IMG/VR virus record: IMGVR_UViG_2657245461_000008
DNA length: 5,580 bases
From: a virus
Lineage: Duplodnaviria; Heunggongvirae; Uroviricota; Caudoviricetes
Reading direction: 5' to 3' (one strand)
In this document: positions 1,034 to 1,096 of the stretch, one piece after another
Numbering within the stretch: the stretch's first letter is position 1
How the letters are laid out: every line of letters begins with the position of its first letter
Program-made: the position numbers and the translations under genes
Notes under the pieces: model-generated
What the model was told of the DNA's origin: nothing
Database searches by the model: none
Seen by the model: only the letters and a program-made list of their open reading frames with translations

Positions 1034-1052
1034 GTTAATGATAATTATTTTC
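1034..1052 (+). promoter_or_regulatory. Fur box (iron-responsive repressor operator) upstream of sitA
   Basis: GTTAATGATAATTATTTTC matches the 19-bp Fur consensus GATAATGATAATCATTATC at 16 of 19 positions by hand alignment. It lies 77-95 nt upstream of the sitA ATG and overlaps a candidate -35. Confidence 0.6.
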
Positions 1053-1076
1053 ATTTTGTATAGGTTATGCTATAAA
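1048..1076 (+). promoter_or_regulatory. Putative sigma70 promoter of sitABCD (-35 TTTTCA 1048-1053, 17-bp spacer, -10 TATAAA 1071-1076)
   Basis: Best hexamer pair by eye in the region. Alternative pair TTAATG 1035-1040 / TATAGG 1059-1064 cannot be excluded. Transcription start not determinable from sequence. Confidence 0.3.
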
Positions 1077-1096
1077 ACATAGCCGTTGCTATGTTT
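1075..1096 (+). promoter_or_regulatory. MntR box (manganese-responsive repressor operator) upstream of sitA
   Basis: AAACATAGC cgtt GCTATGTTT is a perfect 9-bp inverted repeat with a 4-bp spacer, matching the enterobacterial MntR operator pattern as I recall it. It ends 32 nt upstream of the sitA ATG, overlapping the candidate -10 and likely start site. Confidence 0.7.

Follow-up and report, generated by a model that had tools for sequence, protein, structure and literature searches.

Predicted Fur and MntR control of a prophage-borne sitABCD operon, with a candidate second MntR-type site at the promoter

Introduction

We analysed the control region at positions 1034-1096 of a stretch of 5,580 nucleotides recorded in IMG/VR as a Caudoviricetes virus (IMGVR_UViG_2657245461_000008; hereafter the window, meaning the whole stretch), in which putative binding sites for the metal-responsive repressors Fur and MntR lie at the predicted promoter of four plus-strand open reading frames (ORFs). 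By their sequences we assign these ORFs to sitABCD, a Mn2+/Fe2+ uptake operon: sitA (1129..2043) would encode the periplasmic Mn/Fe-binding protein, sitB (2043..2870) the ABC ATPase, and sitC (2867..3724) and sitD (3721..4578) the two permeases, which together make up the four-gene composition of a SitABCD-type importer. In NCBIfam, SitB scores above the equivalog cut-off for the Mn/Fe ABC ATPase (NF011630, 593.7 bits against a cut-off of 393), SitA has family-level matches to Mn/Zn-type substrate-binding proteins of metal ABC transporters, and SitC and SitD have family-level matches to the corresponding permeases. RefSeq names the genes sitA-D, iron/manganese ABC transporter, in E. coli loci that are 98-99.8% identical to the window.

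Repression of sit by MntR and Fur has been reported in Salmonella and Shigella (PMC3852070, PMC8970401, PMC9315381, PMC8432900). In a Salmonella fur mutant, sitA is up 53.8-fold (PMC3212961), and sigma-S counteracts both Fur and MntR at the Salmonella operon (PMC8970401). PMC9315381 and PMC3852070 cite Ikeda et al. 2005 for a Fur box and an MntR box at Salmonella sitABCD; for sitABCD of Shigella flexneri and pathogenic E. coli, PMC3852070 cites Runyen-Janecky et al. 2006 and Sabri et al. 2006. An earlier note on this DNA, made from the letters alone, had proposed that Fur and MntR operators bracket the sitA promoter and had itself called this a known arrangement; we share that judgement, given the published repression in Salmonella and Shigella, and the same architecture is already known for mntH as well as for enterobacterial sit loci. 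A second line of work concerns operators built from more than one MntR site. At Bacillus subtilis mneP and mneS, contacts between MntR dimers make their binding to 18-bp sites placed 1 bp apart cooperative, and only through that cooperativity do the weak sites in these arrays become filled; E. coli mntS has paired MntR sites over its promoter with a spacing identical to that of the mneP/mneS arrays (PMC11882963, a 2025 structural paper).

Results

A Fur box at the predicted -35 element

The Fur box, GTTAATGATAATTATTTTC at 1034..1052 on the plus strand, agrees with the consensus GATAATGATAATCATTATC at 16 of 19 positions (3 mismatches), exactly where and as strongly as had been proposed, and is the sole match with three or fewer mismatches on either strand of the window. 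Read in the 7-1-7 form, the sequence TGATAAT-T-ATTTTCA at 1039-1053 agrees with TGATAATnATTATCA at 13 of 14 positions. A score of 16/19 was reached in none of 200 shuffles of the whole window. A stricter local null, used throughout, consisted of 5000 sequences drawn from a first-order Markov model of the AT-rich intergenic stretch 698-1128; again none reached 16/19, and 19 of them reached 15/19.

The intergenic stretch has only 33% GC and lies within a prophage-derived island, and one could therefore speculate that the match is a by-product of AT-rich DNA, for instance of an acquired region bound by H-NS, and no true Fur site. The local null, which preserves dinucleotide composition, nevertheless never produced a match of this quality. 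The position of the box is moreover common to the sit promoters of nine genera (Escherichia, Phytobacter, Salmonella, Citrobacter, Klebsiella, Raoultella, Buttiauxella, Enterobacter and Atlantibacter), an aligned Fur-like box scoring 13-16/19 is found in ten loci outside Escherichia (in Phytobacter, Shimwellia, Erwinia amylovora, Salmonella, Citrobacter, Raoultella, Buttiauxella, Enterobacter and Atlantibacter), and the box scores 15-17/19 in other E. coli alleles. Together with the documented Fur-dependent regulation of sit (PMC3852070, PMC8970401, PMC3212961), this makes a chance origin of the box very improbable.

A perfect palindrome with the arms of the mntH palindrome

Downstream of the Fur box, at 1075..1096, lies the palindrome AAACATAGC-CGTT-GCTATGTTT, whose arms of 9 nt are 100% complementary and separated by 4 nt. 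It matches the MntR pattern AAACATAGC-N4-GCTATGTTT at 18 of 18 positions, again precisely as proposed, and no sequence of the local null did so (0/5000), while a perfect 9+4+9 palindrome of any sequence arose in 23 of the 5000. The palindrome is 33 bp 5' of the sitA ATG and overlaps the predicted -10 element and start. We refer to it as site 2 and to 1077-1094 as its 18-bp core. Reading the upstream region of mntH in E. coli K-12 directly, we found AAACATAGC-AAAG-GCTATGTTT, whose arms are the same as in the window; this mntH palindrome is reported to be the MntR operator (Patzer & Hantke 2001). We also derived a position matrix from 34 sites in 17 sit promoters outside Escherichia, and by this matrix the core 1077-1094 is the top 18-mer of the window, at 21.0 bits, compared with 23.1 bits for the mntH palindrome. 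Among E. coli alleles, site 2 is essentially invariant.

A palindrome of this kind could also act as an RNA hairpin, an intrinsic terminator or attenuator of an upstream transcript, and not as a protein site. A consensus scan does call it terminator-like (9 pairs and a 4-nt loop, followed by GTTCTAATTT), its predicted RNA fold has an energy of -9.8 kcal/mol (z = -3.1), and some symmetric changes in both arms occur between genera. On inspection, however, the features of an intrinsic terminator, namely a GC-rich stem, an unbroken U-run and a position 3' of a transcribed gene, are absent at 1075-1096: only 3 of the 9 pairs are G-C, the T-run in GTTCTAATTT is interrupted, and the nearest 5' ORF, a truncated integrase, stops at 697, some 380 bp away, with no intact gene between. 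The predicted start falls inside the palindrome, and the sit mRNA would thus carry one arm only. The core ATAGC/GCTAT is invariant, whereas at the four outer positions of the stem pairing is missing in 25-50% of 20 aligned sequences, a count that is not decisive alone, and the arms are those of mntH. Pair counts by themselves being indecisive, it is the genomic context, the predicted start and the invariant core that lead us to reject the terminator, and we give a hairpin function next to no weight.

A predicted extended -10 promoter and its leader

Ranking candidates between 940 and 1128 with a relaxed promoter scan (our own ad hoc scoring) places first the combination of TTTTCA at 1048..1053 (4/6 matches to the -35 consensus), a 17-nt spacer and TATAAA at 1071-1076, extended by TG at 1068-1069 to the putative extended -10 element TGcTATAAA (1068..1076), all on the plus strand. 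The -35 candidate lies within the 3' end of the Fur box, and a ATTATTTTCA stretch at this element is conserved in several genera. The top-ranked promoter thus agrees with the proposal that the Fur box overlaps the -35 and the palindrome the -10 and start. The spacing from the -10 element and, by homology, the annotated RybA/mntS 5' end lead us to infer a transcription start at 1082..1086. In K-12 the mntS promoter, which is homologous to that of sit, reads GCTATATAATATAGCCTGTGCTAT; its element equivalent to the -10, GCTATATAAT, lies just 5' of the annotated RybA/mntS end, and the RybA transcript is annotated as beginning at the G within the spacer of the downstream mntS palindrome, which is base 10 of the corresponding 18-bp site. 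The stringent consensus scan had returned a different candidate, TTGCCA-16-TAAAGT at 915-942 on the plus strand, along with one minus-strand site; this total of two is in line with what shuffles yield (1.4 expected).

A G at -14 and a C at -13, upstream of the -10 element, favour recognition by sigma-S. The GCTAT sequence that overlaps the -10 would provide both bases and may in this way link the promoter to sigma-S.

The rest of the 5' leader (1097..1128, plus strand) contains a weak Shine-Dalgarno sequence, TAGGT at 1116-1120. Positions 1097-1127 are identical in 10 of 10 aligned E. coli alleles, and 1128 differs only in the allele of plasmid p80; the stretch up to 1127 is unchanged even in plasmid alleles that are about 12% divergent just upstream. 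A TTTTaAtCAC-like motif in the leader is partially conserved across genera. In a search of the whole window against Rfam, no family was found near the sit promoter.

A second, imperfect MntR-type site in register with the palindrome

The MntR operator had been described as a single site; what was overlooked is a second, imperfect site at 1058..1075, between the Fur box and the palindrome and over the promoter spacer and the -10 element. This site 1 reads GTATAGGTT followed by ATGCTATAA, with the core ATAGG-TTAT-GCTAT. A single base pair (1076) separates it from the 18-bp core of site 2, and the two sites therefore repeat with a period of 19 bp, the geometry of a paired operator with two 18-bp sites 1 bp apart (1058-1075 and 1077-1094). 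The GCTAT sequences at 1069 and 1088 form the right half-sites of sites 1 and 2, respectively, that of site 1 falling within the predicted extended -10 element. The pattern ATAGC-N4-GCTAT occurs with one or no mismatch at only two places in the window, which are these two sites, the core of site 1 carrying the one mismatch. By the position matrix, 1058-1075 is the second-best 18-mer of the window, at 13.6 bits, and the next best reaches 4.7; the maximum of a local-null sequence reaches 13.6 bits in 0.6% of cases (P ~0.006). The same matrix gives the two mntS sites, which are also 19 bp apart, 25.9 and 15.2 bits.

Since a tandem of ATAG...CTAT motifs recalls the binding site of an OxyR tetramer, one might ask whether the region instead makes sit peroxide-inducible. 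The OxyR consensus, ATAGnTnnnAnCTAT-N7-ATAGnTnnnAnCTAT, is likewise made of ATAG-N7-CTAT units. Reviews report an effect of OxyR on mntH and sitABCD and OxyR elements in the Salmonella sit promoter (PMC9315381 and another review). Yet ATAGnTnnnAnCTAT-N7-ATAGnTnnnAnCTAT has no match with three or fewer mismatches anywhere in the window, the spacing in the operator is ATAG-N6-CTAT-N5-ATAG-N6-CTAT, with a period of 19 bp against 22 bp for OxyR, and the arms of site 2 are those of the mntH palindrome. An OxyR site is therefore a highly unlikely explanation of the tandem.

Conservation of the site pair across Enterobacterales

For a comparison beyond E. coli we collected relatives of sitA from one genome per species; the 80 kept included no Escherichia or Shigella locus, and E. 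coli alleles were taken from annotated collections. The DNA upstream of the Enterobacterales loci was scanned for the sites, and a 20-sequence alignment was made. Across the 20 sit promoters the mean column identity is 53% and the flanks are barely alignable. The invariant columns coincide almost exactly with GCTAT at 1069-1073, ATAG at 1079-1082 and GCTA at 1088-1091, and ATAGC in the columns of 1060-1064, the left half of site 1, is nearly invariant. Two more Pantoea loci outside the alignment have the 19-bp site pair, and paired MntR-type sites were present in 22 of the 22 Enterobacterales sit promoters examined as well as in E. coli mntS.

A homologous operator region is found in 2356 of 5426 complete E. 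coli genomes, and the exact 73-bp operator sequence of the window in 9 records. In a ColV-type plasmid allele (plasmid p80, positions 1598-1634 of our locus L084), carried by about 1000 E. coli plasmids, the strengths of the two sites are reversed, with TTATAGCTTCTGCTATAA at site 1 scoring 18.2 bits and ACATAGTAGTTGCTATGT at site 2 scoring 12.9 bits; the Fur box of this allele is weaker (15/19). Such a reversal between chromosomal and ColV alleles would fit selection acting on the pair, a comparison that involves two allele classes only.

These data bear directly on the possibility that 1075-1096 is the sole functional MntR site and that 1058-1075 is a decaying relic, whose right half is kept as the extended -10 element while its left half drifts. 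The most variable stretch of the operator in ten E. coli alleles is indeed the left half of site 1, which reads ATAGG, ACAGG, ATTGC, ATGGC or ATAGC, next to an invariant right half and an invariant site 2; in one allele (H22) site 1 scores only 7.9 bits; the left halves in Salmonella and Citrobacter are degenerate (ATACC and ATGCC); and a review speaks of "an" MntR element in the sit promoter (PMC9315381). Against a relic, 14 of the 17 other genera aligned keep ATAGC unaltered as the left half, the 13.6 bits of site 1 in the window come close to the 15.2 bits of the upstream site of mntS, which is described as paired (PMC11882963), and the 18+1+18 geometry is exactly the cooperative one (PMC11882963). 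An irrelevant site 1 would likewise be hard to square with the plasmid allele, in which site 1 is strong and site 2 weakened. We regard a single functional site as plausible without being probable.

The competing interpretation, in which the sit operator is a paired cooperative MntR operator of the mntS/mneP type and not a single box, would join a strong and a weak site, a steep response to Mn, a half-site shared with the extended -10 element and selection on the pair; we hold it tentatively, at slightly less than even odds. That site 1 is functional in the present allele we judge to be about an even bet.

Turnover of regulatory sites

Beyond the loci described so far, the combination of sites varies. 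In E. coli AF4 (chromosome, positions 1-100 of the locus) an IS5 element just 5' of the sit -10 stands where the -35, the Fur box and the left half of site 1 would be, and only from the GCTAT half-site onwards, including the perfect palindrome, is the operator retained; judging by this arrangement, the AF4 variant should have lost Fur control. Six Pantoea loci keep both MntR-type sites without a Fur box, the best Fur match in the Pantoea sit promoters examined being 11-13/19. In three Photobacterium loci a strong Fur box (15-16/19) is present and an MntR site was not found, and many alphaproteobacterial loci (which make up most of our loci L022-L080) have palindromes resembling GCAAATG-N5-CATTTGC instead. 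Regulatory turnover of this kind at the sit operon fits the reported displacement of Fur by MntR (bioRxiv 10.1101/2023.06.02.543501).

The surrounding island

Within the operon, sitA and sitB overlap by 1 nt (2040-2046), and sitB/sitC and sitC/sitD by the 4 nt ATGA (2867-2870 and 3721-3724), which suggests translational coupling and one transcript that starts at the sit promoter. Chromosomal loci of E. coli O121 and of related human isolates match positions 756-5520 of the window at 99.7-99.8% identity, and pAPEC-O2-ColV matches 655-4585 at 98.4%. At its left edge, a 217-amino-acid ORF (44-697) corresponds to the C-terminal part only of a tyrosine recombinase, and its RefSeq homologue is an incomplete integrase; positions 6-57 are the end of an IS1 element (94% match to the DNA adjoining the IS1A transposase gene of plasmid p80), and IS1 appears to have cut the integrase of the sit island. 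On the other side, convergent with sitD, a 207-amino-acid minus-strand ORF (4779-5402) marks the other edge of the prophage remnant; it is called a DUF4376 / tail fiber assembly protein in near-identical E. coli loci, and NCBIfam gave no match for it. Given the E. coli loci of at least 98% identity, together with the integrase remnant, the IS1 end and the tail-fibre-assembly-like ORF, the window is best read as a prophage-remnant sit island of pathogenic E. coli and Shigella.

Between the integrase remnant and the sit promoter, TTTGCCCC(A/C) is present in three copies at 706-725 and 903-911 (with one or no mismatch, 6 matches in the window against 2.1 expected), and these copies might be arm-type sites of the integrase in an old prophage attachment region. 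Compared with the window, the E. coli loci have an indel of about 31 bp near 902-919. The Rfam search of the whole window also returned a fragment match to CssrB, a chromosome-encoded small RNA of Shigella, at 4741-4796 on the minus strand, which stays below threshold (30.3 bits against a gathering score of 76, E = 0.0025). The match covers a GC-rich inverted repeat (gcggcacgt...acgtgccgc), probably a shared terminator, with sitD on one side and the convergent tail-fibre-assembly-like ORF on the other.

Discussion

Taken together, the motifs, their positions and their conservation point to 1034-1096 as the Fur and MntR control region of the sitABCD Mn2+/Fe2+ uptake operon, a reading to which we assign a probability of roughly 0.88. 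Several points weigh against it. A 2011 review lists direct binding of Fur at Salmonella sitA as not shown (PMC3212961). The promoter elements and the start site are predictions for this allele, and the consensus promoter scan does not list the sit promoter that the Fur box would overlap, because it demands a T at the sixth base of the -10 element. As far as the second MntR-type site is concerned, its left half varies among E. coli alleles, most severely in H22, and its invariant right half could be conserved purely as a -10 element.

On the sequence as it stands, the region would operate as follows. RNA polymerase would use the weak -35 TTTTCA and the extended -10 TGcTATAAA, starting at around 1082-1086. 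With iron plentiful, Fe2+-Fur would occupy the Fur box (1034-1052 or 1053) and block the -35; with manganese plentiful, an Mn2+-MntR dimer would bind 1077-1094 and block the start site, and the weaker site at 1058-1075 would, we infer, most likely take a second dimer by dimer-dimer contacts and so cover the -10. Because Fur would block the -35, and MntR the start and the -10, either metal alone should shut sit off, and full expression would need both to be scarce. Dual repression by Fur and MntR, as the earlier note had predicted, is supported both by the sequence and by the literature; its further qualification that the two act independently holds only approximately, some cross-talk between the metals having been published.

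The closest known system is Salmonella sit, an orthologous operon for which repression by Fe-Fur and Mn-MntR is documented. In S. enterica arizonae the order is the same as in the window (Fur box, degenerate MntR site, strong MntR site, 5' leader, sitA). In sequence the two differ. Salmonella has a Fur box, GCAAATAAGAATTATTTTC, that scores 13/19 and a downstream site, TAACATAGC-AAAG-GCTATATTC, that matches at 15/18; the window thus has the better Fur box and a perfect palindrome. The Salmonella operon also lies in SPI-1 (Salmonella pathogenicity island 1), and that of the window in a prophage remnant. The sit operons of Shigella flexneri and pathogenic E. coli are of the same kind as the present one, which is one allele among them. 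K-12 mntH shares the palindrome arms, a Fur-like box over a TTGATA -35 and the placement of the palindrome at the start region, but it has a single MntR site (by our own matrix its next best 18-mer scores 5.6 bits and is not adjacent), its spacer is AAAG where that of the window is CGTT, and its transporter belongs to the NRAMP family.

With mntS and mneP, on the other hand, the window shares two 18-bp sites with a 1-bp gap over the promoter and with the -10 at the junction. The K-12 mntS promoter differs in having no Fur box within the stretch read, and the B. subtilis array in having four sites and in activating an exporter; cooperativity has been shown for B. subtilis MntR only. It has been argued in a preprint that mntS derives from the signal-peptide region of an MntR-regulated sitA (bioRxiv 10.1101/2023.06.02.543501), an origin that fits the common promoter architecture.

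Confirming the two boxes adds nothing new in itself. What goes beyond the earlier note are the exact promoter coordinates of this allele (1048-1076, with Fur at 1034-1053) and the phased second MntR-type site, which puts MntR at both 1058-1075 and 1077-1094. SitABCD imports Mn and Fe and is associated with virulence in Shigella, pathogenic E. coli and Salmonella; this switch is what its induction in host cells depends on. The paired site, if true, would tie sit to the cooperative MntR mechanism known structurally from B. subtilis and proposed for mntS, and the differences between chromosomal and ColV alleles could then change how steeply sit expression responds to Mn, or at what threshold.

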